DNA of 63,098 nt from Candidatus Parcubacteria bacterium (lineage in GTDB: Bacteria > Patescibacteriota > Minisyncoccia > UBA6257 > 2-01-FULL-56-20): the NCBI GenBank assembly GCA_041169145.1, contig JBEEJO010000001.1, forward strand, positions 1 through 63,098. Direction: 5' to 3'. The position numbers and the translations under genes are program-made. Under the pieces are notes generated by a model. It was not told the DNA's origin, did not search any database, and saw nothing but the letters and a program-made list of their open reading frames with translations. Of this stretch, positions 2,852 to 61,632 are shown piece by piece. Within the stretch, counting starts at the first letter, position 1; each line of letters opens with the position of its first letter.

Positions 2852-2879
2852 TTGCTATTATAGGCCATTTCCTGATAAT
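2852..2879 (+). promoter_or_regulatory. sigma70-like promoter TTGCTA-16-GATAAT, 10 nt upstream of the dnaX ATG
   Basis: Hexamers at 2852-2857 and 2874-2879. No SD between the -10 and the ATG at 2890. Confidence 0.5.
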
Positions 2880-2889
2880 AGAAAGTGCT

Positions 2890-4002
2890 ATGGGATTGGC
2901 ACTCTATCGGAAATATCGCCCGCGGAAGCTCGATGACCTGCTCGGCCAGGATATGAACGTGCAGATCCTCAAGGATGCCGCGCGCCAGGACCGGCTCGGC
3001 CAGGCTTATCTTTTTTACGGTCCTCGCGGCACCGGCAAAACATCAACCGCCCGGCTCATCGCAAAACTCGCGAACTGCGAAAAGCGGCATACGGACCCGA
3101 AATTCCGGGAGCTCGGCGAACCCTGCAACGCATGCCGCATCTGCAAGGAGATCGAGGCGAACGCGTCGCTTGGCGTCATAGAAATAGACGCGGCGTCGAA
3201 CCGCGGCATCGACGAGATCCGCAACCTCAAAGAGGATATCCAGATGGCGCCCGCAGGCACGCTGCGCAAAGTCTATATCATTGACGAAGTTCATATGATG
3301 ACCCCCGCGGCGTTCAATGCGCTCTTGAAGACGCTGGAAGAACCTCCACGCCATGCGATGTTCATCCTTGCGACGACAGAATATGAGAAACTTCCGGCGA
3401 CCATCGTTTCGCGCACTCAGCGATTCTTGTTCAAAAAACTCTCTAAAGCAAAGATCCTGGAGAAACTGAAAGCGATCACAAAGGCGGAGAAGATCTCCGT
3501 CAATGACGACGCATTGGAGCTCGTTGCGGCGGCGGCGGACGGCAGCGTGCGGGATGCCGAATCGCTCTTGGAGCAGCTTTCATCACTTGCGGCGAAGATC
3601 GATCTCAAAACGGCCGAACACATCACCGGTCGGACCGGTTTCAAAACCGTTGATGCGCTTGCCGAACTGATATTGCGGCGCGATCTGAAGAACGCGCTGA
3701 ATTACGTCGCGCATCTCGGCGAAGAAGGCGTGAATATCGTCCAGTTGGTCCGCGACCTCATTCACTATATGCGGAAGATCGTTACGCTGAATCTTTCGCC
3801 CGACGTCGAGTACGTATTCCATACGGAACTGACCGGCGAAGAAGTGAAGCGGCTCGTAGCGCTCGCAAAGCTCACGGAACCCGCCCGCGACCTGAAACTT
3901 ATCCATGCGCTTATCCGCGCGTATGCGGAAATGCGCTATTCGCCGTTCCACAGCGTTCCGCTCGAGATCGCCCTCATAGAATATCTCAATTCGCCGCAGT
4001 AG
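2890..4002 (+). CDS. dnaX: DNA polymerase III subunit gamma/tau
   Basis: YRKYRPRKLDDLLGQ, Walker A GPRGTGKTSTARL, zinc module CNACRIC, DEVHMM box. Confidence 0.9.
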   Translation: MGLALYRKYRPRKLDDLLGQDMNVQILKDAARQDRLGQAYLFYGPRGTGKTSTARLIAKLANCEKRHTDPKFRELGEPCNACRICKEIEANASLGVIEIDAASNRGIDEIRNLKEDIQMAPAGTLRKVYIIDEVHMMTPAAFNALLKTLEEPPRHAMFILATTEYEKLPATIVSRTQRFLFKKLSKAKILEKLKAITKAEKISVNDDALELVAAAADGSVRDAESLLEQLSSLAAKIDLKTAEHITGRTGFKTVDALAELILRRDLKNALNYVAHLGEEGVNIVQLVRDLIHYMRKIVTLNLSPDVEYVFHTELTGEEVKRLVALAKLTEPARDLKLIHALIRAYAEMRYSPFHSVPLEIALIEYLNSPQ

Positions 4003-7340: not shown

Positions 7341-8858
7341 TTACATGCCTTTCAGGATATCTATCCTCGCGCCAAGCTTGTTCAACCGGTTCACGAGATC
7401 TTCATATCCGCGATTGATGGAATACACGTTCCGCAGAATGGACGTACCGCGCGCGGCAAGCATGCCGATCAACACGATAACTGCCGGGCGAAGCGCGGGC
7501 GGACAAACAACTTCCGCACCGCGAAGCTCCGTCGGGCCCTCGATATAGACACGATGCGGATCCGCAAGAATGATGTTCGCATTGAGCTTCGCGAGTTCCA
7601 TATAGTAGATGGCGCGGTTCTCGTAGACCCAATCGTGAATGAGCGTCGTTCCTTTCGCTTGCGTCGCAACGGGCACGAAGAACGGCAGATTGTCTATGTT
7701 CAGCCCGGGATACGGCTGAGCGTGAAGTTTCTCTTCAAGCGCAACGAGTTTGGACGGAAGGGTCTTGATATCAACAAGATTCGCCTCGCCGTTCCGGGCC
7801 TTATATCGGCGCAGGATCTTGTACCGGAATCCCATCTTCTCGAGCCTTAACAATTCCATCTCCAAGAAATCAATGGGGCATCGTTCAATGGTAAGCGATG
7901 AGCGAGTCGTCGCGGCAATGGAAAGGAAGAGCATCGCTTCGATGGGGTCCTCGCTCGGCTCGTATGCGACATCTGCGCGAATATCACGCTTGCCATGCAC
8001 GGTCATTGTGGTCGTTCCGATGCCATCCACGCGCACGCCGAGCTTCTCGAGGAACCGCGCAACATCTTGCACCTGATAGTTCGCTGAGGCGAATTTAATG
8101 ACGGTCTTGCCCGGCACGCGCGCGGCGGCCATGAGCGCATTTTCCGTCACCGTATCGCCGGCTTCGTACAGCACAATATCGGCAGGGCGAAGCTTTGCAG
8201 CGGTGATGTGATAGTTGCCTTTCGTCGCAGAGATCTTCACGCCAAGCTTTTCTAATGCGAACAGATGCGGACGCACCGTCCGTCGGCCAAGCCGACAGCC
8301 GCCAGGATACGGTATGGCAAATGCCTGCAGTTCATGGATAAGCGGACCCATAAGCATCAGGACGCTCCGCGTTTTTATCGCCGATGCGATGTTCAATCTA
8401 TCCATCCGAAGCGTTTTTGGAGGAACGATCTCCACGTCGCTTTGGCCCGACCAGCGAACCGTAACGCCGATGGATTGGAGCACTTCTATCACCCGGTTCA
8501 CTTCTTCGATTTTCGGCATATTGCGAAGCGTCGTCTTGCCGCGGTTCAAGAGCGATGCGCAAAGCAACCCAACCGCCGAATTTTTTGATGTGTTCACGCG
8601 AACCGTGCCGGAAAGCTTCCGCCCGCCCTCGATACGGAAGCTCATCGCGCCGGATGACAGCGTGATGATATTGCGCTTCAATACGCGGCCGATCTTTGCG
8701 AGCGTCTCGGTCGTGAAATTCTGCTCACCCTTTTCCATTCGCGCAACGGCACTTTGGCTCGTGTGCAAAGCCTTTGCTAACTCCTCTTGCGTCATTCCCG
8801 CATGTTCGCGAAGCGTTTCTATAAATCTGCCGATCTGTATTTGTTCTTCGGTTTTCAT
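7341..8858 (-). CDS. murA: XRE-type HTH domain fused to UDP-N-acetylglucosamine 1-carboxyvinyltransferase
   Basis: Residues about 10-65 (MTQEELAKALHTSQSAVARMEKGEQNFTTETLAKIGRVL) form an XRE HTH. The rest aligns with MurA, including the PGGCRLGRR catalytic Cys loop and the C-terminal INRGYEDLVNRLNKLGA. Confidence 0.85.
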   Translation of the reverse strand: MKTEEQIQIGRFIETLREHAGMTQEELAKALHTSQSAVARMEKGEQNFTTETLAKIGRVLKRNIITLSSGAMSFRIEGGRKLSGTVRVNTSKNSAVGLLCASLLNRGKTTLRNMPKIEEVNRVIEVLQSIGVTVRWSGQSDVEIVPPKTLRMDRLNIASAIKTRSVLMLMGPLIHELQAFAIPYPGGCRLGRRTVRPHLFALEKLGVKISATKGNYHITAAKLRPADIVLYEAGDTVTENALMAAARVPGKTVIKFASANYQVQDVARFLEKLGVRVDGIGTTTMTVHGKRDIRADVAYEPSEDPIEAMLFLSIAATTRSSLTIERCPIDFLEMELLRLEKMGFRYKILRRYKARNGEANLVDIKTLPSKLVALEEKLHAQPYPGLNIDNLPFFVPVATQAKGTTLIHDWVYENRAIYYMELAKLNANIILADPHRVYIEGPTELRGAEVVCPPALRPAVIVLIGMLAARGTSILRNVYSINRGYEDLVNRLNKLGARIDILKGM

Positions 8859-8864
8859 ATAAAT

Positions 8865-8893
8865 AGCATATCACATATGATATATTTGTTCAA
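8865..8893 (-). promoter_or_regulatory. promoter TTGAAC-17-TATGCT placed 6 nt before the murA ATG (leaderless geometry)
   Basis: Plus-strand gttcaa at 8888-8893 and agcata at 8865-8870. Only ataaat lies between the -10 and the start codon. Confidence 0.55.
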
Positions 8894-13381: not shown

Positions 13382-13834
13382 TCACGTGAACATTTTTTCT
13401 CCCGATGCGCTCCACCGCTTCCGAAGATGCCACGCGGCCCAGAGATATGCGGCTCCCGTAATGACGAATAGGACCTGATTCCCATAGGAAACGGACATCC
13501 CGATGTTCTGCCCCAAAAGTCCGGCGAGACCCAAGTTAATGCCGGAAATGACGCTTACGAAGAACGCATACGTGTCGCGCTGGTCGCGTCCGCCAAAAAG
13601 CTTCTTCTCACCGCCGTGCCAGCGATACAGCAGATACGCCGAAGCGACGCCCGAGACGATCCACGACAGATGGAGAAACGGGAGCGTGATGCCATAGAGC
13701 GTCGGCAGAAAATACAAAACGGGCGGATATCCTCCGAGGAAGAGTGCCACCGCAGCGATCACGAGCCGAGTCTGCGACCAAACGAAACTATACCGCTCCA
13801 GCTGGTCCGGGTGAGTGTGATGTTTAATGCTCAT
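13382..13834 (-). CDS. hypothetical integral membrane protein
   Basis: 150 aa with four hydrophobic helices. Extended -10 (tggTATACT) ends 6 nt before the ATG. Confidence 0.5.
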   Translation of the reverse strand: MSIKHHTHPDQLERYSFVWSQTRLVIAAVALFLGGYPPVLYFLPTLYGITLPFLHLSWIVSGVASAYLLYRWHGGEKKLFGGRDQRDTYAFFVSVISGINLGLAGLLGQNIGMSVSYGNQVLFVITGAAYLWAAWHLRKRWSASGEKMFT

Positions 13835-13872
13835 CGGCTAAGTATACCACATCCACCGTCACGCCAATTTGA

Positions 13873-16297: not shown

Positions 16298-16696
16298 CTA
16301 TGATGCTTGATTTTCCTGGCCCGGCTTTTTTGACAATCGATTTTTTACGACATTCTCAAGGTCATCGATGGACGTCTTCGCTTTAATGTAATAATCCACC
16401 GCGCCCAAGCTTCTGGCCTTTTCTACGTCAGATTCCTGGCCAAGATTTGAAACGACCATAATGGGAATGCTGTTCAATTCGACATCGCTCACCACGCGTT
16501 CCAAAAACTCAAAACCCGACACTTTTGGCAGGATGATGTCCAAGATGACAAGATCGGGCCGCAAGCTTCGCATCTTCTGCACGCCTTCGTCGCCGTCGAA
16601 CGCCTGATCAACGACAAAACCGTCGTGTTCTAGGCGACTCTTGAGCATAGACGACACAAATCGATCATCCTCTACGAGTAATACTTTCGGCTGCAT
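16298..16696 (-). CDS. single-domain response regulator, tandem paralogue of 15890-16285
   Basis: Long identical runs with the neighbour (HDGFVVDQAFDGDEG, KARSLGAVDYY). Start set at ATG 16696 because the longer ORF runs into the 16S gene. Confidence 0.85.
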   Translation of the reverse strand: MQPKVLLVEDDRFVSSMLKSRLEHDGFVVDQAFDGDEGVQKMRSLRPDLVILDIILPKVSGFEFLERVVSDVELNSIPIMVVSNLGQESDVEKARSLGAVDYYIKAKTSIDDLENVVKNRLSKKPGQENQAS

Positions 16697-16705
16697 ACTG
16701 CACCC

Positions 16706-16733
16706 AGTATAACAGATAGAGCTGGTCTGGCAA
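16706..16733 (-). promoter_or_regulatory. promoter TTGCCA-16-TATACT, 9 nt before the response-regulator ATG
   Basis: Plus-strand tggcaa at 16728-16733 and agtata at 16706-16711. Confidence 0.55.
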
Positions 16734-16809: not shown

Positions 16810-18358
16810 AGTTTAATTGATCCACGCACAGCTTCCGCTACGCGTGCCTTGTTACGACTTAGCCCATGTCACCGAGCCAGAACTAATCCCACCGAAGCGA
16901 GACTTCATCCTTTCCCGGCTTCCTTGGCTTGACGGGCAGTGAGTACAGGACTCGAGAACGTATTCACCGCAACGTAGCTGATTTGCGATTACTAGCGATT
17001 CCGGCTTCATGGGGTCGAGTTGCAGACCCCAATCCGAACTGAGGCCAGGTTTTGTGGGGTTAGCTCCGGCTTACGCCTTGGCGACCCATTGTCCTGACCA
17101 TTGTAACACGAGTGTAGCCCAGGGCATCAGAGGGCCATGCGGATTTGACGTCATCCCCTCCTTCCTCCCCCGCCGAAATCCGCAACGATTGTTGTGAACT
17201 TTGGCGGGGGCAGTTTCGCGTGACACTTGTAACACGCGATAGGGGTTGCGTTCGTTCACCCAATTAAGGGGACGCCTCACGGCACGAACTGACGACAACC
17301 ATGCAGCACCTGTGCTTTCTGTCCTTGTGAGAGGTCTTCCCTTTCGGGAAGATTTCAAAAAGCATTTCAAGCCCTGGTAAGGTTCCTCGCTTATCGACGA
17401 ATTAAACCTCATGTTCCACCGCTTGTGCGAGTCCCCGTCTATTCCTTTGAGTTTTAAGCTTGCGCTCGTACTTCCCAGGCGGCCTGCTTAACGCGTTAGC
17501 TCCGGCACTCCGAGGGTCGATACTCGAAACACCAAGCAGGCATCGTTTAGGGCGTGGACTACAAGGGTATCTAATCCTTTTTGCTCCCCACGCTTTCGTG
17601 TCTCAGAGTCAGGAAGGTCCCAGTGCACTGCCTTCGCCTTTGGTGTTCCCCACGATATCAACGGATTTCACCCCTACACCGTGAGTTCCATGCACCTCTA
17701 ACCTCCTCTAGTCCTGCCGTATTCCACGCAGTTCCACCGTTAGGCGGTGGGATTTAACATGAAACGCACAGAACCTCCTACACACGCTTTACGCCCAATA
17801 AATCCGGATAACGCTTGAGGTCTACGTATTACCGCGGGTGCTGGCACGTAGTTACCAACCTCTTTCCGTGGAGCCCTCACTTGCGTTGGTACTCCACTAC
17901 CGCAGTTTACAACCCGAAGGCCTTCATCCTGCACGCGGCGTCGCTCGATCAGGCTTTCGCCCATTGTCGAATATTCTCGACTGCTGCCTCCCGTAGGAGT
18001 ACGGACCGTGTCTCAGTTCCGTCGTTGGGGATCAGGCTCTCACCCCCCCTACCGGTCATAGCCTTGGTAGGCCATTACCCTACCAACTAGCTGATCGGAC
18101 CTAGGCCGATCCCGAAGCGCATTGCTGCGTTTACCCTTCGATTGCTCTCAGGGACTATCGGGTATTACTCCGCCTTTCGGCGGACTATCTCCGTCTTCAG
18201 GGTACGTCACCAAGGTGTTACTAACTCGTTCGCCGCTACTCTATCCCATCCGTCGCTTTGATGTAATCGCAACTTCTTCAAAGATAGAATCGCTCGACTT
18301 GCATGCCTTATCCACGCCGCCAGCGTTCATCCTGGACCAGGATCAAATCCTCAGTAAA
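16810..18358 (-). rRNA. rrs: 16S ribosomal RNA (orphan, no 23S/5S or spacer tRNAs adjacent)
   Basis: Minus strand reads ...GGATTTGATCCTGGTCCAGGATGAACGCTGGCGG at the 5' end. It has GTGCCAGCACCCGCGGTAATAC, ATTAGATACCCTTGTAGTCC, and AAGTCGTAACAAGG...GGATCA at the 3' end. The exact 3' boundary is uncertain. Confidence 0.93.
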
Positions 18359-18987: not shown

Positions 18988-19020
18988 CTCCGCGGTTCGT
19001 CAACTCTTGGAGGTCAACGA

Positions 19021-19242
19021 ATGAAAAAGCGAGTTATCATCGCCGGTGGCGTAACGCTCGGAGCCGTGGCGGCAGGAGCAGCCGTAAGCGCCCTCGCGCA
19101 CAGGCGCGCGAAGAAGTTGGAGGAGCTCGGGGATCCAAATCCCCTCGCCCTCTCCTCCGGCGCAAAGACCACGACCGAGCTGGACGATCTCGAACGCCTC
19201 ACTCGCGCCGCCCGCTGTCCCGGCGAGATCGTCAGTTCGTAG
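19021..19242 (+). CDS. hypothetical small membrane protein (73 aa)
   Basis: Complete unit: consensus promoter, GGAGGtcaacgaATG, one TM helix (VIIAGGVTLGAVAAGAAVSALA), and a terminator at 19254-19298. Confidence 0.55.
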   Translation: MKKRVIIAGGVTLGAVAAGAAVSALAHRRAKKLEELGDPNPLALSSGAKTTTELDDLERLTRAARCPGEIVSS

Positions 19243-19253
19243 AATCTCCCTTC

Positions 19254-19298
19254 CGCGTCCCGGAATCGCCTATTGCGGCTCCGGGACGCGCCTCTTTT
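19254..19298 (+). terminator. rho-independent terminator
   Basis: gcgtcccgg/ccgggacgc stem followed by gcctcttttt. Confidence 0.6.
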
Positions 19299-19304
19299 TC
19301 CTAT

Positions 19305-19332
19305 TTGCCATTTTTTTGAAGTTGGATATAAT
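19305..19332 (+). promoter_or_regulatory. promoter TTGCCA-16-TATAAT, 9 nt before the rpmE ATG
   Basis: Hexamers at 19305-19310 and 19327-19332. No SD. Confidence 0.6.
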
Positions 19333-19341
19333 GGACCAGTT

Positions 19342-19599
19342 ATGAAAACCGATATTCATCCCACATATTACAAGGATGCCAAGGTGCGTTGCGCCTGCGG
19401 CAATAGTTTTACGGTCGGCGCAACGCGGCCGGAGATCCGCGTTGAGATCTGCCACAACTGCCATCCGTTCTATACGGGCGAAAAGAAGCTTGTTGATACC
19501 GCGGGTCGCGTGGAACGGTTCACGACGCGCAGAACAAAAGCAGTTCCCGCACGGGTAAAGAAAGTTCGGATCCGCAAGAATAAAGTTACGTCACTGTAA
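19342..19599 (+). CDS. rpmE: 50S ribosomal protein L31
   Basis: [10 protein letters not shown]...CACGNSF...[11 protein letters not shown]. Confidence 0.9.
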
Positions 19600-20034
19600 C
19601 CAAACTCCTTCCGGCAAACCGGTGAAGTTTTGGGCCTCTTGCGCGCTCCGCAGATATTTGCGCACGGAGGCGATGATGCGTTCAAGGCTGCTCGTCTTTC
19701 GGATATATCCCTCGGCGCCGACCTGTTGCGCGGCAAGCTGATCGACATCCAATCCCCCCGGCCGGATGTCGCCGAGCTTGGTAAGGAAAAATATCCGTAA
19801 ACCGCGCGTTAAAGGGTCTGTCTTCAGATCCAAAATGACACTCACCCCATCCCGTGCTGGCAAATGAACTTCAGTGAGCATAAGGTCCGGACGCAAAGCT
19901 CGCGCTTTCTGCGCCGCGATGTTTCCGTCCTGCGCTATTTCAACGCGGCAGCCTATTCCAGTGAGCCGCCCCGAAAGTTCTTGAGCAAAGCTCGCATCGT
20001 TGTCTGCGAGGAGAATGAGCGGTCGTTTTTCCAT
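19591..20034 (-). CDS. response regulator receiver protein with short C-terminal extension
   Basis: LILLADND...LMLTEVHLP...FFLTKLG receiver pattern. The start is uncertain (20034 or 20091). Confidence 0.7.
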
Positions 20035-20147
20035 GGAAGCGATATGTCCATTATACATCATTTGCCCGGCATGGCTCTTCGGTCGTGACATAGACGCCTT
20101 TCTTGTAGTACAATCGTTTGCACAGAAGCGGTTCCACGAACTATTCC

Positions 20148-20879
20148 ATGAAAAAGCTCATTTTGGAGATTCGGGCCGGGGCGGGCGGCGATGAAGCCGC
20201 TATTTTTGCCGGCGATCTCGCGCGGATGTACCAGCGATATGCGGGAAAGCGCGGCTGGACATTCTCTATCCTTGATTCCAACGAAACGTCCTTGCAGGGC
20301 TATAAATCGCTCGTTGCCGAAGTGAAGGGCGAAGGATGTTATGACGCTCTGAAGCTCGAATCCGGCGTCCATCGCGTCCAGCGCATTCCGGCGACCGAAA
20401 AAGCTGGGCGCGTGCATACCTCAACGGCGTCCGTTGCAATCTTGCCCATCGTGGAAGCGAGGGAGGTCACCGTGAATCCGAACGATTTGGAGGTCACGTT
20501 TTCCCGCGCCGGCGGCCCGGGCGGGCAGAATGTGAACAAGATAGAGTCCGCCGTCCGCATTCTCCACAAACCGACGGGTATCGTTATCTCATGCCGAGTG
20601 GAGCGGAACCAGCACGCGAACCGCGAACGCGCGATGGAAGTGTTGCGCGCGAAACTCTGGGACCTGGAACAACAACGAACAACGGGCAATGTTTCCGAGA
20701 TCCGCCGCGAGCAGGTCGGGAGCGCTGACCGTTCCGAAAAAATACGCACCTATAATTTTCCCGACGACCGTATTACGGACCATCGCTTCAACGCGAAAGT
20801 ACACAATATCGAAAAAGTGCTTGAAGGCGATCTGGATGCGCTTTTGAAGAAGATAGCGAAGGGCGGGGCCGGGCAATAA
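20148..20879 (+). CDS. prfA: class I peptide chain release factor, RF1-type (PAT motif), lacking N-terminal domain 1
   Basis: [33 protein letters not shown] (PxT), GPGGQNVNK (GGQ), [14 protein letters not shown]. Only 243 aa (253 from the TTG at 20118). Confidence 0.8.
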
Positions 20880-20930
20880 GACATTCCCAGGTGCTATGTG
20901 TTCGCATAGCACTCGTAAATGCCAAGTACG

Positions 20931-20964
20931 AACGGGGACGAATGATGTCCCCGTTTTACGTTTT
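20931..20964 (+). terminator. rho-independent terminator after prfA
   Basis: aacggggac/gtccccgtt stem followed by ttacgtttt. Confidence 0.65.
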
Positions 20965-21035
20965 GTCCGGCGCAGTGGTCGTCCCCATCGCGACGAACGA
21001 GTTGTTCGTCGTGGAAACGGTCAAATAGTAGAACT

Positions 21036-21069
21036 GTCCTAGTTGTATGCTATAGCATACAACTAGGAC
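21036..21069. promoter_or_regulatory. perfect 34-bp palindrome, candidate operator
   Basis: gtcctagttgtatgcta|tagcatacaactaggac, with 17 of 17 positions symmetric. Lies 96 bp upstream of the wHTH-Nudix gene. Confidence 0.45.
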
Positions 21070-21164
21070 GGGAACCGCCTCGGGCATGCTAATCAAGCGC
21101 CCAATTCCTATCCCCAACCTACTGAAGTCCGCTTCACTGGACGCACGGCGAACACGGCTCTAGG

Positions 21165-21875
21165 ATGCATTCTATGACTGCCATCAATCCGAACGACATA
21201 CATCCCATCCAGGGACGCATTCTCCGAGAACTCCTCTTTCATCCCGACCGGCGCTTCTCGGACCTTGCGCCTAAAGGTGTTCCCAGCGACCAACTGGCGT
21301 TCCACGTAAAACGCCTACTGGAGCTAAGTCTGTTGAATAAGCTTGGCGACCGGTACGAACTCACCGCAAGCGGCAAAGAGTTTGCCGGGCGTTTTGACAC
21401 CGACGGAGCTGAGACAATGGTGATGGAGAAACAAGCAAAACTATGCGTTCTTGTCACGTGTGTGCGCGATGGAAAATATCTTGTCCAACAGCGGCTCAAG
21501 CAGCCATTCTATGGATTCTATGGATTTGTTACCGGTAAGGTCAAAATGGGCGAAACGACCGCAGAAGCGGCCGCACGGGAACTCATGGAAGAAACTGGCC
21601 TAACGGCGAAACTCCTGCCCGTCGGCATAGAACATAAGATAGATCACTCCGCGAGCGGTGAACTTTTGGAAGATAAACACTTCTTCGCGTTTCGTGGCGA
21701 ACACCCGCAAGGGGCGCTTGTTGAGCGCTTTGAAGGAGGTCGGAATATGTGGCTCACCAAAGAAGAAATGCTCGCGATGCCAAACTTGTACGCCGATATC
21801 GCAGATGCCCTATCGTTATGGGAAAGTAAAGAATTCCACGTCATTGAACGGCGGTATACGGAAGAGAAATACTAG
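21165..21875 (+). CDS. winged-helix DNA-binding domain fused to NUDIX hydrolase
   Basis: N-terminal ILRELLFHPDRRFSDLA...LAFHVKRLLELSLL (ArsR/MarR-like wHTH). Nudix box GKVKMGETTAEAAARELMEETGL. Confidence 0.75.
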   Translation: MHSMTAINPNDIHPIQGRILRELLFHPDRRFSDLAPKGVPSDQLAFHVKRLLELSLLNKLGDRYELTASGKEFAGRFDTDGAETMVMEKQAKLCVLVTCVRDGKYLVQQRLKQPFYGFYGFVTGKVKMGETTAEAAARELMEETGLTAKLLPVGIEHKIDHSASGELLEDKHFFAFRGEHPQGALVERFEGGRNMWLTKEEMLAMPNLYADIADALSLWESKEFHVIERRYTEEKY

Positions 21876-22336
21876 AGACGCTTCGCCACTTCTGCTATCT
21901 CTTCCGCGATTCCTTCGATGAGATCGAAATTCTTTGCTTCGTCCGCCGTCACCCACGCGAAATCCGTCAGATCCTTGCCCAGTTTTACTTCGCCGCTTTT
22001 CCACGGCGCCCAGTACGAAAGAATAACGACCGGATAGCCGTCGGGACGGACGAACGCGAGGTCGCACACATATTCCGCGCGCCCAATTTCCAATCCGACC
22101 TCCTCTTGCACTTCTTTCTCAACCACCCATTGCACGACGTTGTACCATTGGTTCGCGAGCTGCGGCAGATGTTCGTACTCGTGGCGCACCAGCTTTCCAC
22201 CCGGCACCGTCCAGCGGTTCGGATGAACCTTTTCGTGCGCGGCACGTTTGGCTATCAAAAACTTGCCGTCCCTTGCGACAATACACGTCGCGACGACGAA
22301 ATGGATTCTCGGGTCTATTGCTTGTTCGTTACTCAT
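21872..22336 (-). CDS. NUDIX hydrolase
   Basis: Nudix box GGKLVRHE...VVEKEVQEEVGLE. Start set at ATG 22336, overlapping the ndk stop. Confidence 0.75.
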   Translation of the reverse strand: MSNEQAIDPRIHFVVATCIVARDGKFLIAKRAAHEKVHPNRWTVPGGKLVRHEYEHLPQLANQWYNVVQWVVEKEVQEEVGLEIGRAEYVCDLAFVRPDGYPVVILSYWAPWKSGEVKLGKDLTDFAWVTADEAKNFDLIEGIAEEIAEVAKRL

Positions 22337-22922
22337 CAACGCCGAAGCGCTTGTATGGGAACGGTTTGAATCCTTTGCCGAACCAGTGCTGTATCTCGTG
22401 CTCTGCCTCCTCCGGCGTCTCCGAGGCATGGAGCAAGTTCATCACTGCGCGCTTTTCGCTGTTCGCGAGCGCGGCGGAATCTATGGAGAAGTCGCCGCGA
22501 ATGGTGCCCATATCGGCCGCCGAGGGCATCGTTGCGCCGGCGATCTTCCGCACGACGTCAACCGCATGCACGCCCTGCACCGCCATCCGAACGAGTGGCG
22601 CCGAGGTCATGTAATCCACCAGCCATTTGCGGACCATCACGCCGATCTTCTTGTCGTCTTTGGTGCCTAATTCTTTCACCACGTCATAGCCGTATTTCTC
22701 ATACGTCGCCAGGCTCTTTTGCCCCAAACGACGGATCCACGCCTCATTCTTCGGATAGTGGTCGTCTATCTGCGCATGCGTCGGCTGGAACATCTCAAGC
22801 GCAACGACTTTCAGGTCGCGCTGTTCGAATCGTCGGATGATCTCGCCGATAAGCCCCTTCCGGACCCCGTCCGGCTTTATCATCACATAGGTCACCTCTT
22901 CTTTCGGTTTTCTCTTGTTCAT
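22329..22922 (-). CDS. ndk: nucleoside-diphosphate kinase (long variant with internal insertion)
   Basis: TYVMIKPDGV, NLLHASETPEEAEHEIQHWF (active-site His). Confidence 0.85.
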   Translation of the reverse strand: MNKRKPKEEVTYVMIKPDGVRKGLIGEIIRRFEQRDLKVVALEMFQPTHAQIDDHYPKNEAWIRRLGQKSLATYEKYGYDVVKELGTKDDKKIGVMVRKWLVDYMTSAPLVRMAVQGVHAVDVVRKIAGATMPSAADMGTIRGDFSIDSAALANSEKRAVMNLLHASETPEEAEHEIQHWFGKGFKPFPYKRFGVDE

Positions 22923-22929
22923 GTGGTTA

Positions 22930-24357
22930 TTATTTTTCGTTCTTTATTGCTAATCCTAATTCATCAAGCTGCTTCTTGTCTACGGACGCAGGGCTTCCCA
23001 TCATCGGATCGCGGCCGTCGCCGGTCTTCGCGAACGCAATGACCTCGCGGATATTCGGCTCGTTCTGAAGTATCGCAACAAGCCGATCCAGCCCCCATGC
23101 GATGCCGCCGTGCGGCGGCGCGCCGAACGAGAGCGCCTGCAGCATATGGCCGAAGTTCTTTTCTATCCGCTCATCGGTGAATCCCATGATCGAGAAAACG
23201 GCTTTTAAGGCTTCGGGACGATGATTTCGGATGCTCCCCCCGCCGATCTCGAACCCATTCAGGGCAATATCATATTGCGTGGTGAGAATGTCGGGGATAT
23301 TCTTCCCGGCAAGCAGGTCGTCCGCATATTCCGGTTTCGGCGCCGAGAACGGGTTGTGCGTGAACGTCCACTGCGGTAATCCCTCGGCTGCTGCCTCGGG
23401 ATGAACGGGTCCTTCGACCCGTTCAAAGAACGGAAAATCGATGACCCAACAAAATGCGAGGAGGTTCGGGTCGTTCTTGTCGGTTCGCATGTCCGGTCGG
23501 TCGGTTTTGTACCGTTCCATCGCCTCCTTATACGTGAGGCGAGGAAATGGCTTTTCCTGTATCGTTTTCTCCGGGTAGAGCTTTTCCACCAATGCGATGA
23601 GCAATGCTTCGTTCAGGGCCATTACGTCTTCACGCTCTACGAAACTCATTTCCATATCAAGCTGAGTGAACTCCGGCTGACGGTCGCCGCGCGTATCCTC
23701 ATCACGGAAACACCGTGCGATCTGGAAATACTTTTCCACGCCCGCAACCATAAGCAATTGTTTATATTGCTGCGGCGACTGCGGGAGAGCATAGAAATTG
23801 CCGGGGCTTATCCGCGACGGCACAAGATAATCCCGCGCGCCTTCCGGCGTAGATCGCGAAAGCGACGGCGTTTCGATCTCAAGGAATCCTTTCTCATCCA
23901 TCCAGTCGCGGATGAATTTCACCAAGCGATGGCGCATGCGGAAATTCTTCGCCATCCGTTCGCGGCGCAGATCCAGATACCGATACTTCAAACGAACCTC
24001 TTCGTTGACGTCATAGCCATCCCCATCAACCGGTATCGGCATCTCCCCCGCCGGATTCAATACGGTGAGCGACTTCGCCTCTACCTCTATTGTGCCGTTC
24101 GGGACCTTGTCGTTCACCATCGCCGCCGGGCGGGCTTTCACCATGCCGGTCATATGGATGACATACTCGAGACGCATATCGCCTGCGCCTTGAATCTGGG
24201 GCGTAAACACGACCTGCACCAACCCCGTGCGATCGCGAAGATCAATGAAAATGATCTTCCCGTGATCGCGGCGGGCGTGCACCCAGCCGAAAAGCTCAAC
24301 CTCTTTCCCAGCGGAATTCTTCAGGTCTTGTATCCAGGTCCTCATAGGTAATGTCAT
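22930..24357 (-). CDS. aspS: aspartate--tRNA ligase, bacterial-type core without the GAD insertion domain
   Basis: GWVHARRDHGKIIFIDLRD, QSPQQYKQLLMVAG, FRDEDTRGDRQPEFTQLDMEMSF, GGGSIRNH. 475 aa. Confidence 0.9.
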   Translation of the reverse strand: MTLPMRTWIQDLKNSAGKEVELFGWVHARRDHGKIIFIDLRDRTGLVQVVFTPQIQGAGDMRLEYVIHMTGMVKARPAAMVNDKVPNGTIEVEAKSLTVLNPAGEMPIPVDGDGYDVNEEVRLKYRYLDLRRERMAKNFRMRHRLVKFIRDWMDEKGFLEIETPSLSRSTPEGARDYLVPSRISPGNFYALPQSPQQYKQLLMVAGVEKYFQIARCFRDEDTRGDRQPEFTQLDMEMSFVEREDVMALNEALLIALVEKLYPEKTIQEKPFPRLTYKEAMERYKTDRPDMRTDKNDPNLLAFCWVIDFPFFERVEGPVHPEAAAEGLPQWTFTHNPFSAPKPEYADDLLAGKNIPDILTTQYDIALNGFEIGGGSIRNHRPEALKAVFSIMGFTDERIEKNFGHMLQALSFGAPPHGGIAWGLDRLVAILQNEPNIREVIAFAKTGDGRDPMMGSPASVDKKQLDELGLAIKNEK

Positions 24358-24362
24358 GTGGT

Positions 24363-24391
24363 ATAATACGGCAATGATGGACTTTTCTCAA
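24363..24391 (-). promoter_or_regulatory. promoter TTGAGA-17-TATTAT, 5 nt before the aspS ATG; its -10 overlaps the plus-strand TATAAT of mgtC
   Basis: Plus-strand tctcaa at 24386-24391 and ataata at 24363-24368. Plus-strand tggTATAAT (24359-24367) lies 6 nt before ATG 24374. Confidence 0.55.
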
Positions 24392-24838
24392 ATGTATGCG
24401 CAGTTCGCGATCGCCATCGTCCTCGGCGCCCTCATGGGCCTGGAACGGGAGCTTGCCGGGAAAGAAGCCGGTATTAGAACCGGCATGATGGTTGCCAGCG
24501 GATCGGCGATATTCACCATTGTTGCGCTCCACCTGCCCGCTCTCCTCGCGGAGAATTATGCGACGAATGTCCACGACATCCTTGCCCATAATGCCGGCTT
24601 TTTGAACGTCATCGCGAACATCGCCGTCGGCATCGGATTTCTCGGCGCCGGCATCATCATCAAGACCGAAGAACATGTCTATGGCCTTACGTCTGCCGCC
24701 GTCATTTGGGTCATTGCGGCTGTTGGCATGCTTGCGGGACTCGGTCTTACGCAGTTCGCCGTCACGACCGCCGTGACGCTTTCCGTACTGCTCTATATCA
24801 TGCGTAAGCTCGGTATTTCGGAAAAGCTTCAACGCTGA
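24374..24838 (+). CDS. mgtC: MgtC/SapB family membrane protein
   Basis: IVLGALMGLERELAGKEAGIRTGMMV. Start moved to ATG 24374 (the longer ORF overlaps the aspS start). Confidence 0.8.
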   Translation: MMDFSQMYAQFAIAIVLGALMGLERELAGKEAGIRTGMMVASGSAIFTIVALHLPALLAENYATNVHDILAHNAGFLNVIANIAVGIGFLGAGIIIKTEEHVYGLTSAAVIWVIAAVGMLAGLGLTQFAVTTAVTLSVLLYIMRKLGISEKLQR

Positions 24839-25034
24839 GAGAAATAGCAACCCCTCGACCCGGCCAGGGTCGTCTTCCCTGTGCTATCCGTATTCGTCGC
24901 AAGGCGACGAAGGATTCTGGTCGTAAAAATGAAGTGGCCCGGGAACCTTGCAGTCCCCGGGCCGAACTTGAAACGAACCTGAAAGCGGCTGGCGAAGCCG
25001 GTGATGTGCGCCGGCAGCCTCCGCGTCGGAGTGG

Positions 25035-25328
25035 TCAGGCCCGAGCCGCCGGTCTGCCGGCCGTCTTCTTCGGGGACGGAACTCCGACGTTTTGCGCCGC
25101 ACGCTCCTGCTTCATCTCCCGGAACTGTCCGCTGAGCTTCCTCGTATGCTCCAGCATGGCGCCGTACTCCGGGCTATGCTCCACGCACGACTGGTGGTGG
25201 ACCTTGTTCTTGGGGTCGATCACCCGTTTGTCTACGGGATAGAAGACCCTCTTCCCACAGGTCGCACATTCGAGGTCGTCGCGCATGAGCTCCAAGAGCC
25301 CGCACCGGTCCAAATTCATCTGTGACAT
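25035..25328 (-). CDS. hypothetical small protein with CxxC pair
   Basis: 97-aa ORF (MSQMNLDRCGLLE...CATCGKRVFYP). No recognisable family. Confidence 0.35.
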   Translation of the reverse strand: MSQMNLDRCGLLELMRDDLECATCGKRVFYPVDKRVIDPKNKVHHQSCVEHSPEYGAMLEHTRKLSGQFREMKQERAAQNVGVPSPKKTAGRPAARA

Positions 25329-25498
25329 TCCGCTGCCCTCTTTCGTGTTCGTTCTTGTCAACGCACAGCCTCGCGAAAAGCCGTGCACGATGTGCTCTCA
25401 TCCGGCCACGCGTGCATGCGCGCGCGAACGGATGTCGCACATTATATCAGCGTGGATATTTTCAGTCAATTATCCAAGCTTGTGGAAAACTTCCTTGC

Positions 25499-25527
25499 TT
25501 GACATTCAAATTATCGTGTGCTATATT
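25499..25527 (+). promoter_or_regulatory. promoter TTGACA-17-TATATT with TGn extension
   Basis: Hexamers at 25499-25504 and 25522-25527. About 175 nt upstream of the 3D-domain gene start. Confidence 0.6.
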
Positions 25528-25703
25528 TTCATCAGCTCGTCTGTAATCCGTTTCGCTTTTCCCGGACATTAACATCTTTCGGGAGGTTATCGTTCGTTGT
25601 TCGGTCGCGCAGGGAAGCGCGGGCGTTCATTTTCGGGAAAAGCGAAAAAAAACTGAACACATCGCGAGCATATATTCACTCGCCACTCTATCGGAGGTCT
25701 CGA

Positions 25704-26192
25704 TTGCGAACAAAAAACCACGACGTAGAGGACCATCACACGCGGCAGGTCGTCCGGCTTGCTCTTTTTGCATTCGTCTGCATGCTCCCCCACTGTCGGG
25801 GCATAGCGCGCGCGGCGGACGTGAATGAACAGCCGGCGATCACTGTTCCGTACGTCGTTCACGAAGAAGTTCCCGCGCCACGGCTCGTTCTTATGGAGGT
25901 AACGCTCACCGGCTACTGTCCGTGCACGAAGTGTACGGGAAAGAATGGACCGTGGAACAAGCGGACGACCCGCTACGGAGACCTCGCCATCGTCTGCGAC
26001 GGCGTCGCGGCGGACCCTGGCGTCCTGGTACCGCGATCGCGCATCTACATCCCCGGCATCGGCTGGCGCGAGGTAGATGATATCGGCGGCGATATTAAAG
26101 GCCATCGGCTGGATGTTCGATTCCCCGACCATGAATCGGCGCTTCGTTTCGGCATTCACCGCAAGGTGATCGTCGGCGTTCTCGTCGCTTGA
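25704..26192 (+). CDS. secreted 3D-domain (MltA/RlpA-like double-psi beta-barrel) protein
   Basis: TLTGYCPCTKCTG...GVAADPGVLVPRSRIYIPGIGWREVDDIGGDIKGHRLDVRF. TTG start at 25704 preceded by GGAGGtctcga. The start is uncertain. Confidence 0.65.
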   Translation: MRTKNHDVEDHHTRQVVRLALFAFVCMLPHCRGIARAADVNEQPAITVPYVVHEEVPAPRLVLMEVTLTGYCPCTKCTGKNGPWNKRTTRYGDLAIVCDGVAADPGVLVPRSRIYIPGIGWREVDDIGGDIKGHRLDVRFPDHESALRFGIHRKVIVGVLVA

Positions 26193-26331
26193 TGTGTTCA
26201 TCATCTCCGCCCGGAGGATTTCGGTCCTCCGGGCGTGCGTATTTCTGCTCGTTGACTATGGGATTACCCGACGTATACTTCTGAGAACACAGCGCAGGGA
26301 CTGTAGCTCTTTCCAAGAAGGGAGGTATCCC

Positions 26332-26667
26332 GTGAGGCCAAGGCAGGAATATGTGCTTGCGTTCCTCGTTGCCGTTTTCTTTGCGATCGTAAACAGCGGC
26401 ATGGAGCAGGGCGCGTACAATTCCCCGCCCACGACAGCTCTTGCGAAGCGCGGCTCCGTCGAGACAGAACGTTCGTTCTCCGGCGCAACGTGGCTCATCG
26501 CGGACGATTCGACGGCGGAAGGGCGCAAGAACAACGAAGAGCTGCGCTACGCGATAACGTGGATAGCCACGAGGGCGTGCTGCGCCATCATCGCGCTTGC
26601 TGTCGGCATATTCATCCTGGCAAAGCGCTTTCCGCCGCTACCGCGAAATCCTCCTCCGCACATCTAG
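26332..26667 (+). CDS. hypothetical membrane protein
   Basis: GTG start preceded by GGGAGGtatcc. Two hydrophobic helices, followed by a strong terminator. Confidence 0.4.
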   Translation: MRPRQEYVLAFLVAVFFAIVNSGMEQGAYNSPPTTALAKRGSVETERSFSGATWLIADDSTAEGRKNNEELRYAITWIATRACCAIIALAVGIFILAKRFPPLPRNPPPHI

Positions 26668-26670
26668 AGA

Positions 26671-26703
26671 GCGGCCGATGTCCTTGTTCAGGACATCGGC
26701 CGC
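26671..26703. terminator. 13-bp GC hairpin between convergent genes
   Basis: gcggccgatgtcc-ttgttca-ggacatcggccgc. Confidence 0.6.
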
Positions 26704-26725
26704 TTCACGCATTCACGCGTGCATG

Positions 26726-27277
26726 CTATAACCGGAACTCACCGAGCACCGAATAGTCGGCGCCCGATGGCGATAATATTGACTCCATCAACACGAACGT
26801 CCGCGCCTCTTCCGTCCACAAAACCGCGTCGTTGATGTTTTGCGCCGAAAATTTCGGAAAGCGCGCCGGATCAAAACGTGCCACGGTCATATGAAGCCGA
26901 AACGGTTTTTTGTCCGCATTTCGCGTGAGCGCGCGCTCGATGGTATGTTTCGCGGTGAACAGCTGGTCCGGAGCTTCTCCCTCTGCCCAGATAAGCCGGG
27001 GCTCGCGAAGCGTCGGACCGTATCGCACGAGCGTGTAATTCATGGTGAACGGCCCGATCGATCCTTCGGCCATACGCAGAACGTCCAACACCGCATCGAT
27101 GTCTTCCTCCTCCCACGGCGGTATCACGGTCACATGGAGATTCTTCGGCGCCACCCACCGCACCGGGAGATTCCTATATTGCTTGCGCCACGCATAGACG
27201 GCGTCGTGGATGCCTTTTGAAGCAGGAATAGCAACAAACAGCCGGTGGCTCATGGACCCCATGCCGCCATCATACAC
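26726..27277 (-). CDS. thpR: RNA 2',3'-cyclic phosphodiesterase (2H phosphoesterase, LigT/ThpR)
   Basis: Two HxT motifs (LHVTVIPP, LHMTVARF) with the usual spacing. Confidence 0.8.
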   Translation of the reverse strand: MYDGGMGSMSHRLFVAIPASKGIHDAVYAWRKQYRNLPVRWVAPKNLHVTVIPPWEEEDIDAVLDVLRMAEGSIGPFTMNYTLVRYGPTLREPRLIWAEGEAPDQLFTAKHTIERALTRNADKKPFRLHMTVARFDPARFPKFSAQNINDAVLWTEEARTFVLMESILSPSGADYSVLGEFRL

Positions 27278-27297
27278 AACCGCAACGCCGAAACAAG

Positions 27298-27930
27298 TCA
27301 GGATACGATCCGCCGGACCGCAGGCACGAGCGTTTCTTCTTCCATTGTTTCAATGCGTTTCCGCTTGCGGCGCACTATATAGAACCCAGCGGCCAGCGCA
27401 ATATAGTTCGGGACCAAGATCACCGGATGTGACCATGGCATACCGTTGAAATGCCACGCGGAAAACGGCCAGAGTAAGGGCGTCGGATAAAAGTCGCTGC
27501 TGTGCGTGAACACGTCCATCGCAATATGCAAAAGCCATGGCGTCATCTCCCATATGAACGCGTAGCTCCGTTTCAGGACGAATTTCCGAAACGCCCAAAC
27601 GGCGAAGAATACGGCGAAGAATACGATGGCGCTATGCGTTACGCTGTAGATCTCGCGGGTCACCCAGAAGATGCCATTCGTTTCGGCTCCGATAACCTCC
27701 GCTTCGCGCGGGCGTATAAACTGTTCAGGTTCAATATGGCCGGAAAGGATGCCTCCGCCGAAAAGCAGAAACACGGGCGTGAACGCAATGAGGTCCGGCG
27801 CGAATCCCCAGAACGCCGAGAGGAGTGGATCGAGCTTTCGGACCTCCCCGTTCTTTTTCGTTCTGCGCAAACGAATATTCACCGATTTCGCGAGGAGCGC
27901 GCCCCACAGGCCATGAGAAATGATGTCCAT
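27298..27930 (-). CDS. membrane-bound metal-dependent hydrolase (YdjM/DUF457 family)
   Basis: MDIISHGLWGALL N-terminus, multiple TM helices, conserved His residues. Confidence 0.65.
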   Translation of the reverse strand: MDIISHGLWGALLAKSVNIRLRRTKKNGEVRKLDPLLSAFWGFAPDLIAFTPVFLLFGGGILSGHIEPEQFIRPREAEVIGAETNGIFWVTREIYSVTHSAIVFFAVFFAVWAFRKFVLKRSYAFIWEMTPWLLHIAMDVFTHSSDFYPTPLLWPFSAWHFNGMPWSHPVILVPNYIALAAGFYIVRRKRKRIETMEEETLVPAVRRIVS

Positions 27931-27983
27931 AGGTATTATGTGAAATCCGTCTCGATATCGATCAGTATAGCAAAAACATCACG

Positions 27984-29343: not shown

Positions 29344-29762
29344 TTGAATGTGATAAGGAGCGCACCGGCGACCATGAGTACCGTCCCGAGAATGGACCGC
29401 CACGTCAACTGTTCGCCGAGAAAGAGCGCCGCAAGCACAACGACGAAGACCAAGCTGAGCCGGTCAATGACCACTACTTTCGTCGCCAATCCATATTTGA
29501 GCGCGACAAAATAGAACAGCCACGAAAGCGCTCCGGCAATGCCGGATGCGGCGATAAGCTGCCAATCGCGTACCGTGAATGTTGCGGCGGAGAATCCGGA
29601 GAACTTTCCGAGTGCCACACTCACCGCCACCAAAAACACCGCCATAATGATGGACCGGACAGTCGTGGCAAGCGTTGGGTCAATGTTCTTCAGTCCTAAC
29701 TTCCCAAGAATGGCGACAAGCGCGGCGGTGATAGCAGAGAGAACGGCATAGAGAAGCCACAT
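29340..29762 (-). CDS. small EamA/DMT-family transporter half
   Basis: 140 aa, four to five TM helices. The LGKLGLKNIDP...ALKYG pattern is typical of EamA repeats. Confidence 0.65.
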   Translation of the reverse strand: MWLLYAVLSAITAALVAILGKLGLKNIDPTLATTVRSIIMAVFLVAVSVALGKFSGFSAATFTVRDWQLIAASGIAGALSWLFYFVALKYGLATKVVVIDRLSLVFVVVLAALFLGEQLTWRSILGTVLMVAGALLITFK

Positions 29763-29803
29763 GAACGTATTGTACCAAGTTGCGCGCCTATGCCAAAAAT
29801 CTC

Positions 29804-31006: not shown

Positions 31007-31018
31007 ACGACGTCCGAG

Positions 31019-55561: not shown

Positions 55562-55903
55562 TTACGCTGTTTCCTTCTGTGTTGGCACTTCCGCCGGCTT
55601 GCTCGCCGGTGCCGCCGCTGCGGGGGCGGGCTTTTCCACAACCTTAAATTTCATTTGTATCTTTGGTGATTTCAGAACGCCTTGTTTCACAAAAAGGTTA
55701 TGTACGGTCACCGTCGGCTGTGCGCCGACGCCGAGCCAGTAGGATGCCCGTTCCGCGTTCACATTTGCCTGTTTCGTCCTCGGACTGTATGAACCGAGAT
55801 CCTCAACCGGCGGAGCTGCCATTTTGGAACGCTTTTCCGCCACAACGAGCCGATAGCTCGGCTGGTGCTTCTTTCCGGTGCGCTGAAGTTTGATGGCTAA
55901 CAT
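55562..55903 (-). CDS. rpsP: 30S ribosomal protein S16 with Ala/Pro-rich C-terminal tail
   Basis: MLAIKLQRTGKKHQPSYRLVVAEKRSK... Confidence 0.9.
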   Translation of the reverse strand: MLAIKLQRTGKKHQPSYRLVVAEKRSKMAAPPVEDLGSYSPRTKQANVNAERASYWLGVGAQPTVTVHNLFVKQGVLKSPKIQMKFKVVEKPAPAAAAPASKPAEVPTQKETA

Positions 55904-55912
55904 AACGGAGCT

Positions 55913-55941
55913 ATTCTATACGAAAATACTTGAACGGTCAA
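55913..55941 (-). promoter_or_regulatory. promoter TTGACC-17-TAGAAT, 9 nt before the rpsP ATG
   Basis: Plus-strand ggtcaa at 55936-55941 and attcta at 55913-55918. Confidence 0.6.
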
Positions 55942-60675: not shown

Positions 60676-61497
60676 CTACTTCGTGTTCGTTATGCAGCCC
60701 GAGAACGTCGTCGTACCGTTTTCGGTGATGAATGCGGTATCACCCTTATTCCAGAAAACGAATGATTCATCATCTTTCGCGTAACGCGCACCGGAAGCGG
60801 AGATAGCTCGGGGAACGGACAATTTCCTCTCGTCGCTTAGTACCAGGTCGACATATTTGTCGTCCGTCGGATAAAAAGTCACCGTAATAGTTTTATGGGA
60901 GTCGCAAGAGAACACGGCTGTTTTCGGCGCTGTTGCCGTGCAATATTCTTCCCACTGCCGGATGCAGGTCTGTTTGGCATCACACCAGCTGTAGCCTGCC
61001 GCAACAAGACAGCCATGTTCGTCTTTCTGTCCGCCGATCGCTTGCTCGTGGGTTATCTGGAAAGGCGCGCTTTCTCCCGCGATCACGTCTGTGATCGGAA
61101 TGGATGCGTAGCTATTCACGGATACCACATACGTTCCTGTCGGATACATGTCGGAGATGGTCCACTCAATGCTTCCCATATTATCGAGGTTCACAAAAAC
61201 AATAGGGTCGAACTCCTGGCCCTCGGTCTGGAGGGGCGGTGGAGGCACTCTGCGCAAAGTGACGGAAATTTTATTATCTGGCGAGGTATTTTTTGTGGTC
61301 CATGAAATAGCGTGCGTGGAGCCGGTCGCCCACGTGTCACCGCCATTCGGAGATGTGACCGTGACCGAAGGCGTCGTTTGAAACTGCTTATTTTTCCCCA
61401 AGACGTATAATCCTCCTGCAATAACCGCGATTCCCGCGACTAACAGAACGATAACCAGCGGTGTAAAAGCGGACCGTTGCCTTGAATTATGGAACAT
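60676..61497 (-). CDS. membrane-anchored protein with Kre9/KNH-like beta domain and C-terminal MliC (lysozyme inhibitor) domain
   Basis: VTSPNGGDTWATGSTHAISWTT. The C-terminal FSCDSHKTITVTFYP...SGARYA...FWNKGD resembles MliC. Confidence 0.6.
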   Translation of the reverse strand: MFHNSRQRSAFTPLVIVLLVAGIAVIAGGLYVLGKNKQFQTTPSVTVTSPNGGDTWATGSTHAISWTTKNTSPDNKISVTLRRVPPPPLQTEGQEFDPIVFVNLDNMGSIEWTISDMYPTGTYVVSVNSYASIPITDVIAGESAPFQITHEQAIGGQKDEHGCLVAAGYSWCDAKQTCIRQWEEYCTATAPKTAVFSCDSHKTITVTFYPTDDKYVDLVLSDERKLSVPRAISASGARYAKDDESFVFWNKGDTAFITENGTTTFSGCITNTK

Positions 61498-61632
61498 GCC
61501 CCCATTCTAGCACTTTCCATTCTTGTAACGAGGGGCCATCGACGCGCGTGCATCGTGGCCCCATTGTCTTCCCCCGCTCACTTCACGGGCTCAAGCTGGC
61601 GGGCGTGGTACCGGTTCCTCCTCGAACGTAGA

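Follow-up and report, generated by a model that had tools for sequence, protein, structure and literature searches.

How does a ribosome choose its start codon when its 16S rRNA lacks the anti-Shine-Dalgarno (anti-SD) sequence and the promoters of core genes end only a few nucleotides before the ATG? The divergent aspS/mgtC locus raises this question in a 63,098-nucleotide stretch of DNA from an uncultured, ultra-small Candidatus Parcubacteria bacterium (assembly GCA_041169145.1, contig JBEEJO010000001.1; hereafter the window), one of the 73 contigs of an 814-kb genome of 56% G+C. The same arrangement of sigma-70-type promoter and start codon recurs at other core genes. This recurrent geometry is real, and we hold it probable that it gives leaderless or near-leaderless mRNAs for core genes; the geometry, its statistics, its promoter features and its conservation, like the absence of Shine-Dalgarno (SD) and anti-SD sequences, were observed directly, and from them we infer the exact transcription starts and the loading of ribosomes.

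That the anti-SD is missing had been claimed in an earlier reading of the same DNA (hereafter the original prediction), and this is borne out by a complete bacterial 16S rRNA gene (16810-18358, minus strand; full-length Rfam match, 1364 bits), which ends GGAUCAAUUAAAC and has no CCUCC after helix 45. The 3' end of the gene reads ...GTGGATCAATTAAAC at the place where other bacteria have GGATCACCTCCTTA. The tail AATTAAAC was common to all 14 same-order relatives with an assembled 16S gene, and at class level CCTCC-bearing and CCTCC-less 16S lineages are intermixed. A Parcubacteria subgroup without the anti-SD in 16S rRNA has been described, with a detection rate of 48% (Tsurumaki et al. 2022, RNA 28:1041, PMC9297842). 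The likeness to those bacteria lies in the absence of the CCUCCU motif from the 16S 3' end, here across the whole sampled order, and the class-level mix of anti-SD-positive and anti-SD-negative lineages matches that detection rate. The published work is concerned with the rRNA feature only and, unlike the present analysis, mentions neither promoters nor leaderless mRNAs. Nor does it address the choice of start codons by anti-SD-less ribosomes, for which this genome and its relatives give a partial, testable answer: a sizeable share of core genes is laid out for the mRNA to begin at AUG, and the rest have SD-less leaders or abut an upstream gene. The replacement 16S tail itself, AAUUAAAC (window 16810-16825, minus strand), is kept across nearly the whole sampled order, and its complement is not enriched before starts in this genome.

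Promoters at a fixed distance from start codons

For each open reading frame (ORF), the distance of TANNNT hexamers was counted from the first in-frame start, a definition of the start that is independent of the promoter. Their frequency had a sharp maximum at a spacing of exactly 6 nt (6.7% of genes), compared with about 3% at 7-9 and 11 nt, 1.5% at 5 nt and approximately 1.2% at 15-35 nt; before internal ATGs, which served as a control, it was 0.5%. At spacings of 5-9 nt the hexamer preceded 128 of 750 genes; shuffling their upstream segments with dinucleotide composition preserved left 43.2±6.1 (z = 13.8). The original prediction had called the arrangement a pattern rather than chance, and the shuffled control, which reached only about a third of the observed count, agrees. 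A position weight matrix (PWM) trained on three relatives only gave 4.6% at spacing 6 in this genome versus a background of 0.38%, a 12-fold excess; it replaced a matrix trained on the same genome, which was rejected as circular and also gave an excess in an anti-SD-positive genome. When every candidate start close to the 5' end of an ORF was admitted, the cross-trained matrix placed a good -10 at 6-9 nt in 18.7% of genes versus 3.4% of displaced controls. The geometry thus serves roughly 15% of all genes after control subtraction and, before such subtraction, is found in 25-33% of divergent transcription-unit heads.

The distribution of the signature among gene contexts follows the heads of transcription units. 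TANNNT at spacings of 5-9 nt preceded 32 of 98 divergent genes (26-300 nt gap), with 3-4% in the control, and the matrix applied to any start gave 25% versus 4% for divergent genes and 15% versus 2% for co-directional gaps of 0-50 nt. Overlapping genes stood at 5%, their controls being 0% (PWM) and 4-5% (TANNNT). Restriction to first genes is therefore seen as high values in divergent genes and near-control values in overlapping ones, and the hits at same-strand gaps of 0-50 nt indicate internal promoters.

Several features that had played no part in the selection identify the hexamers as promoter elements. With hits aligned on the hexamer, the free positions were T, A and A, giving the consensus TAtAAT; a G at -14, two bases upstream of the hexamer, was present in 57% of hits, TGn in 28% (about 6% expected), and T, T and G stood at the -35 positions with a 17-bp spacer. 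Transcription starts prefer a pyrimidine at -1 and a purine at +1, and of the 50 genes with spacing 6, 92% had C or T at -1, versus 66% of genes without a -10. ATG was the start codon of 83% of signature genes and 67% of others, the remainder of the signature genes using almost exclusively GTG; in the signature genes of three other anti-SD-less genomes ATG use was 84-92%. Signature genes equalled other genes in G+C and in native coding score. The original prediction had also reported that the flagged genes lack an SD, which is consistent with the composition before starts: no enrichment of G was found from -12 to -6 (G 0.19-0.25 versus a genome mean of 0.28), the upstream regions being enriched in A from -13 to -6, and a spacing of 6-9 nt leaves no room for an SD between promoter and start.

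The geometry is also conserved. Orthologues were fetched from 30 relatives, and the region upstream of the conserved N-terminus was inspected for TANNNT at 6-10 nt. The hexamer was found before 18 of 27 rpsP orthologues (16 of these 18 with TTG at a 16-18 bp spacer), 16 of 24 rpmE orthologues (most with TTG at the same spacer), 16 of 27 dnaX orthologues and 13 of 23 mgtC orthologues; the fifth gene, a helix-turn-helix (HTH)-MurA fusion, is given in Table 1. Pooled over the five genes, 70 of 110 orthologous starts (64%) had the hexamer, compared with 15% of displaced control windows, and 42 of the 70 had TTG at 16-18 bp, mostly at rpsP and rpmE. For the response regulator, 17 of 24 orthologues had the hexamer at a distance of 5-11 nt, including all 12 aligned ones from the same family. 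Since the surrounding sequence is otherwise unconserved, it is the geometry itself that is maintained. Three other anti-SD-less genomes, from the same family, order and class and represented by partial sequence, had the same sharp 6-nt peak (shuffle z 9.5-11.4), and the class-level genome, G047, combined a different 16S tail with the same motif and spacing. A genome-wide scan for -10 elements and a comparison with relatives, both proposed as checks in the original prediction, thus yielded a 6-nt peak and conservation of the geometry.

Within the window, all eight -35/-10/ATG arrangements that had been listed were found, with the same positions and spacings (Table 1). Family profiles identified the products as AspS, MgtC/SapB, S16, L31, a receiver-domain response regulator and DnaX; in the rpsP product the match to the S16 profile begins at residue 2-3, and the L31 profile and the PhoB receiver profile each align 1 to 1 with their respective proteins. 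A leaderless or near-leaderless reading of the eight stands for mgtC, the murA fusion, rpsP, rpmE and the response regulator; it probably fails for aspS, and at the membrane gene the arrangement is not conserved. For dnaX, GATAAT is kept at 10-13 nt in three of four genus members examined and family members have TATAAT at 6-9 nt, and this gene is likely to be near-leaderless, with a predicted leader of 3-6 nt. A promoter scan of positions 13000-32000 returned 27 promoter-like sites, versus 12.8±3.7 in shuffles, among them those of aspS, rpmE and the response regulator and two that abut ATGs at 29762 and 31504. With the cross-trained matrix and any candidate start, 12 of the 60 genes called in the window had a good -10 at 6-9 nt.

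Table 1. Promoter, start-codon and rRNA features of the window, with the number of nucleotides or base pairs between elements given in the arrangement
Feature	Positions	Strand	Arrangement	Basis or remark
mgtC extended -10	24359..24367	+	TGgTATAAT, 6 nt before ATG	Sequence; TATAAT is 24362-24367
mgtC start codon	24374..24376	+	ATG	Predicted transcription start (leaderless); profile and orthologue N-termini
aspS -10	24363..24368	-	TATTAT	Mirror half of the mgtC -10; 5-bp overlap on opposite strands
aspS -35	24386..24391	-	TTGAGA	Inside mgtC coding region; 17-bp spacer; 10/12 matches in promoter scan
aspS upstream in-frame ATG	24355..24357	-	5 nt from -10	Start in the original prediction; probably not the start
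aspS conserved start (M-R-T)	24343..24345	-	17 nt from -10	Predicted leader about 10-11 nt, no SD
murA fusion promoter	8856..8893	-	TTGAAC-17-TGaTATGCT-6-ATG(8858)	Sequence; TANNNT in 7/9 orthologues, every one with the -10 exactly 6 nt from ATG
Membrane gene (150 amino acids) promoter	13832..13849	-	TGgTATACT-6-ATG(13834)	Sequence; not conserved
rpsP promoter	55901..55941	-	TTGACC-17-TAGAAT-9-ATG(55903)	Near-leaderless; predicted 5' untranslated region 0-3 nt
rpmE promoter	19305..19344	+	TTGCCA-16-TATAAT-9-ATG(19342)	Sequence and promoter scan
Response-regulator promoter	16694..16733	-	TTGCCA-16-TGtTATACT-9-ATG(16696)	In spacer after 16S gene; also in promoter scan
dnaX promoter	2852..2892	+	TTGCTA-16-GATAAT-10-ATG(2890)	Sequence; non-canonical GATAAT; predicted leader about 3-4 nt
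Further case	29760..29796	-	TTGGCA-16-TGgTACAAT-6-ATG	Not listed in the original prediction
Further case	61495..61512	-	TGcTAGAAT-6-ATG	Not listed in the original prediction
16S rRNA 3' end	16810..16850	-		Tail GGAUCAAUUAAAC, without CCUCC

Proposed leaderless initiation and its alternatives

In the mechanism that we propose, ordinary sigma-70-type promoters would lie so close to the genes that transcription begins at the start codon or 1-4 nt upstream of it. In many of these promoters the -10 is of the extended TGn type, and many have a TTG as their -35, separated by 16-18 bp. Such mRNAs would leave no space for a ribosome-binding site, and the ribosome together with the initiator tRNA would bind the 5'-terminal AUG directly, a route that fits a 16S rRNA without an anti-SD. 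Core genes would be covered by this arrangement (rpsP, rpmE, the murA fusion, mgtC and dnaX), and such a promoter may also sit in the 3' end of an upstream gene, between tightly packed co-directional genes. The other native genes would have short, SD-less, A-rich leaders or would abut or overlap an upstream stop codon and be translated by reinitiation. Both kinds of gene occur: good promoters lie 14-36 nt upstream of some window genes with SD-less leaders (e.g., those at 59443, 27930, 37121, and 20034), and about a quarter of genes overlap the upstream gene or start no more than 10 nt from it, for which reinitiation after termination is the likely route.

Several observations weigh against leaderless initiation of this breadth. 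More than 80% of genes lack the signature, and the genes themselves were called with a simple periodic Markov model (750-805 genes, about 85% of the genome), a crude procedure that makes the percentages approximate. Spacings of 9-11 nt, as at rpsP, rpmE, the response regulator, and dnaX, imply a leader of 2-4 nt rather than none, and a spacing of 5 nt, as at the aspS ATG 24357, is at the genome-wide background of the cross-trained matrix. The orthologue of the membrane gene in the closest relative, G001, has TATACT 31 nt upstream and is thus leadered. Finally, the geometry was compared across a contrast set of two anti-SD-positive and four anti-SD-negative partial genomes, together with rpsP loci from 15 class-level genomes; this is a small sample of related, phylogenetically non-independent genomes, from which no statistical conclusion is drawn. 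At 6-7 nt the peak stood 3.0-4.7-fold over background in the four anti-SD-less genomes versus 1.7-1.8-fold in the two anti-SD-positive ones. As a peak is present, although weaker, in anti-SD-positive relatives, the geometry is not a specific consequence of anti-SD loss.

Three other explanations of the geometry must be considered. The promoters could be real while an in-frame codon farther downstream generally serves for initiation, behind a short leader. This is probably the case at aspS, with a conserved start 12 nt downstream, and codon 2 of mgtC is also an ATG, at which one relative begins. As a general account it is unlikely, however, given that the family profiles of rpsP, rpmE, the response regulator, and dnaX begin to match at residues 1-4 counted from the promoter-adjacent ATG, that N-terminal residues are conserved in relatives from this same ATG, and that the first in-frame ORF start is the reference point of the genome-wide peak.

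Alternatively, TAnnnT could be a new kind of ribosome-binding site on leadered mRNAs, which would pair with the tail AAUUAAAC or be bound by S1. SD sites typically have the same 6-9 nt range of spacing, the whole order conserves the tail, UAUAAU is one mismatch away from the complement of AUUAAA, and an S1-like protein is encoded. Against this stands the pattern of the hexamer, whose invariant T1, A2, and T6 around a degenerate middle (TACAAT, TAGAAT, TAGGAT, and TATACT) are those of sigma-70 recognition and not of base pairing, and which is accompanied by TGn and by TTG at 17 bp. The motif is, moreover, absent before overlapping and internal genes, where a ribosome-binding site would be most needed, and G047 has another 16S tail yet the same motif and spacing. 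Perfect complements of the tail (TTTAAT, GTTTAA, and TTAATT) show no enrichment here (2 versus about 1), so that a site complementary to AAUUAAAC was rejected for the present genome, and we regard the wider proposal as very improbable. In another genome, G020, TTAATT was mildly enriched near starts (11 versus about 2).

Least credible of all is that the hexamers arose incidentally, from selection for AT-rich, unstructured sequence at starts or by chance in AT-rich spacers, with no fixed function, since the A enrichment at -13 to -6 and the weak hexamers such as TAATTT that are frequent in AT-rich relatives cannot account for the excess over dinucleotide shuffles, for the 8-12-fold drop in frequency from spacing 6 to spacing 5, or for the TGn, -35, and pyrimidine -1 features and the orthologous conservation.

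The predicted shared aspS/mgtC promoter

At the locus that raised the question, one pseudo-symmetric -10 (TATAATA) would serve both divergent genes, mgtC as a leaderless gene and aspS with a leader of approximately 11 nt. The arrangement TGnTATAAT-6-ATG of mgtC is present in all five genus members and in several family members, with intergenic lengths from 20 to 300 nt. Residue 9 of the product is aligned to position 7 of the MgtC/SapB profile, and orthologues start M(M/L)xF at the same place.

On the two strands, A24363 and T24367 act as -11A and -7T for both promoters, which are thus reciprocally paired. Bidirectional promoters that arise from -10 symmetry, with -7T and -11A reciprocally paired and starts 18 bp apart, have been described by Warman et al. 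(2021), as summarized in a passage of PMC10268837. The overlapping, opposite-strand -10 elements of aspS and mgtC resemble the promoters of that passage, the predicted starts (24374 and 24356) likewise lying 18 bp apart. Compared with the promoters as they are outlined there, both arms here serve protein-coding genes and one arm is leaderless, with starts that are predicted. The 18-bp rule predicts that aspS transcription starts at 24356, inside the ATG that the original prediction had picked as the aspS start.

A leaderless aspS beginning at ATG 24357 was rejected as the most likely reading. In addition to its background spacing, the codon at the corresponding position of G001, a genome of the same genus, is not ATG, and 20 of 26 aligned AspS sequences, including that of the present genome, begin at an ATG followed by R and T or V (M-R-(T/V)), which corresponds to ATG 24345 here. 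AspS profiles align from residues 5-8 of the product. Judged by these alignments, aspS most likely starts at ATG 24345 behind an SD-less leader, the length of which, about 11 nt, is what the start predicted from the shared -10 (24356) and the conserved ATG give together. A leaderless start at 24357 that is specific to this genome is a less likely reading. Genome-wide, we looked for further divergent pairs that share one -10; short divergent gaps were few, and none was as clean as aspS/mgtC.

Anti-SD loss, known systems and neighboring features

The original prediction held that the geometry fits the missing anti-SD. The fit is consistent but not exclusive, given the weaker peak in anti-SD-positive relatives, and SD-independent initiation may be older than the loss of the anti-SD. 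The two anti-SD-positive genomes of the class make little use of SD. We tentatively extend this to a class-wide reading, possible although doubtful, in which SD-independent initiation ruled native genes first, making the 16S tail dispensable and allowing repeated loss of the anti-SD. It would have taken three forms: ATG-abutting promoters with leaderless mRNAs, promoters inside upstream genes, and reinitiation at abutting genes. In the same class-wide reading, the remaining AAGGAGG sites would sit on GC-rich foreign cassettes, and the resident ribosome could not pair with them. Besides the sparse SD use and the weak -10 peak of anti-SD-positive relatives, a hint in its favor is that rpsP was without an SD-like motif in all 10 CCUCC-bearing class-level relatives (loci L345-L354).

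Unexpectedly, a textbook AAGGAGG was found 5-9 nt before approximately 5-8% of genes in four anti-SD-less genomes. These SD-bearing genes are richer in G+C (0.605 versus 0.561 in this genome) and have a lower native coding score in three relatives (p 0.005 to 2e-7), although not in this genome; they look like foreign cassettes. One example of a canonical SD site in the window is at 18959-19242 (plus strand), where a perfect TTGACA-17-TATAAT is followed by GGAGG 7 nt before the ATG of a 73-amino-acid, membrane-like ORF. Loss of S1 or of IF3 was considered as a correlate of leaderless translation and rejected, as a four-domain S1-like protein and IF3 (infC) are both encoded. For S21, only weak matches were found, and these in relatives only.

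In kind, the layout is known. Group C of GeneMarkS-2, which comprises genomes such as Mycobacterium, Streptomyces, Corynebacterium, and Deinococcus (Actinobacteria and Deinococcus-Thermus), is marked by operons, 25-50% of the total, in which a Pribnow box lies 6-8 nt from the start codon (bioRxiv 10.1101/193490, PMC4633059). The likeness consists in a Pribnow box at fixed distance before first operon genes, the lack of an SD there and AUG-biased starts. Group C genomes, however, have retained the anti-SD and rely on SD sites at their internal and leadered genes, whereas here there is no CCUCC and native leadered and internal genes are without SD; the group C work does not name this lineage (Patescibacteria, Parcubacteria/Paceibacteria type). 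Bacteroidota and other group B/X genomes share with this one an A-rich, G-poor, SD-less region before native leadered starts. Bacteroidota retain the anti-SD, unlike this genome, and to our knowledge their starts are not preceded by a -10 peak at constant distance. A full-text search of the literature brought up no work that connects Parcubacteria, or other bacteria of the Candidate Phyla Radiation, with leaderless mRNAs. The result is not surprising in kind; the known layout is here extended to a lineage without a fallback SD mechanism. There is also a practical implication: in such genomes, start codons will be wrongly placed by gene-finding programs built around SD motifs. The ambiguous starts of aspS and mgtC are examples, and a model of the group C type is preferable.

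Some neighboring features of the window are of interest in their own right. The murA gene (7344-8858, minus strand) is an in-frame fusion of an XRE-type HTH domain (residues 8-60) with MurA (residues 73-501), and about 10 relatives share this fusion. A perfect inverted repeat, ATATCA-N4-TGATAT (8868-8883), overlaps the TGn/-10 of its promoter and recurs in eight orthologous promoters, which suggests that the fusion protein may repress its own promoter. Directly 3' of the 16S gene lies the stand-alone receiver-domain response regulator (16301-16696, minus strand), in a synteny shared by most order relatives, with a paralogue of 76% identity next to it at 15905-16285. Further along, GTGACA-18-TACAAT (20085-20118, plus strand) ends 3 nt before the TTG that opens a truncated RF1-like ORF (20118-20879), and this proximity makes the true start of that gene uncertain. 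Lastly, a perfect consensus promoter, TTGACA-16-TATAAT, lies at 18731-18758 (minus strand), approximately 370 nt upstream of the 16S 5' end, and is probably the rRNA promoter.

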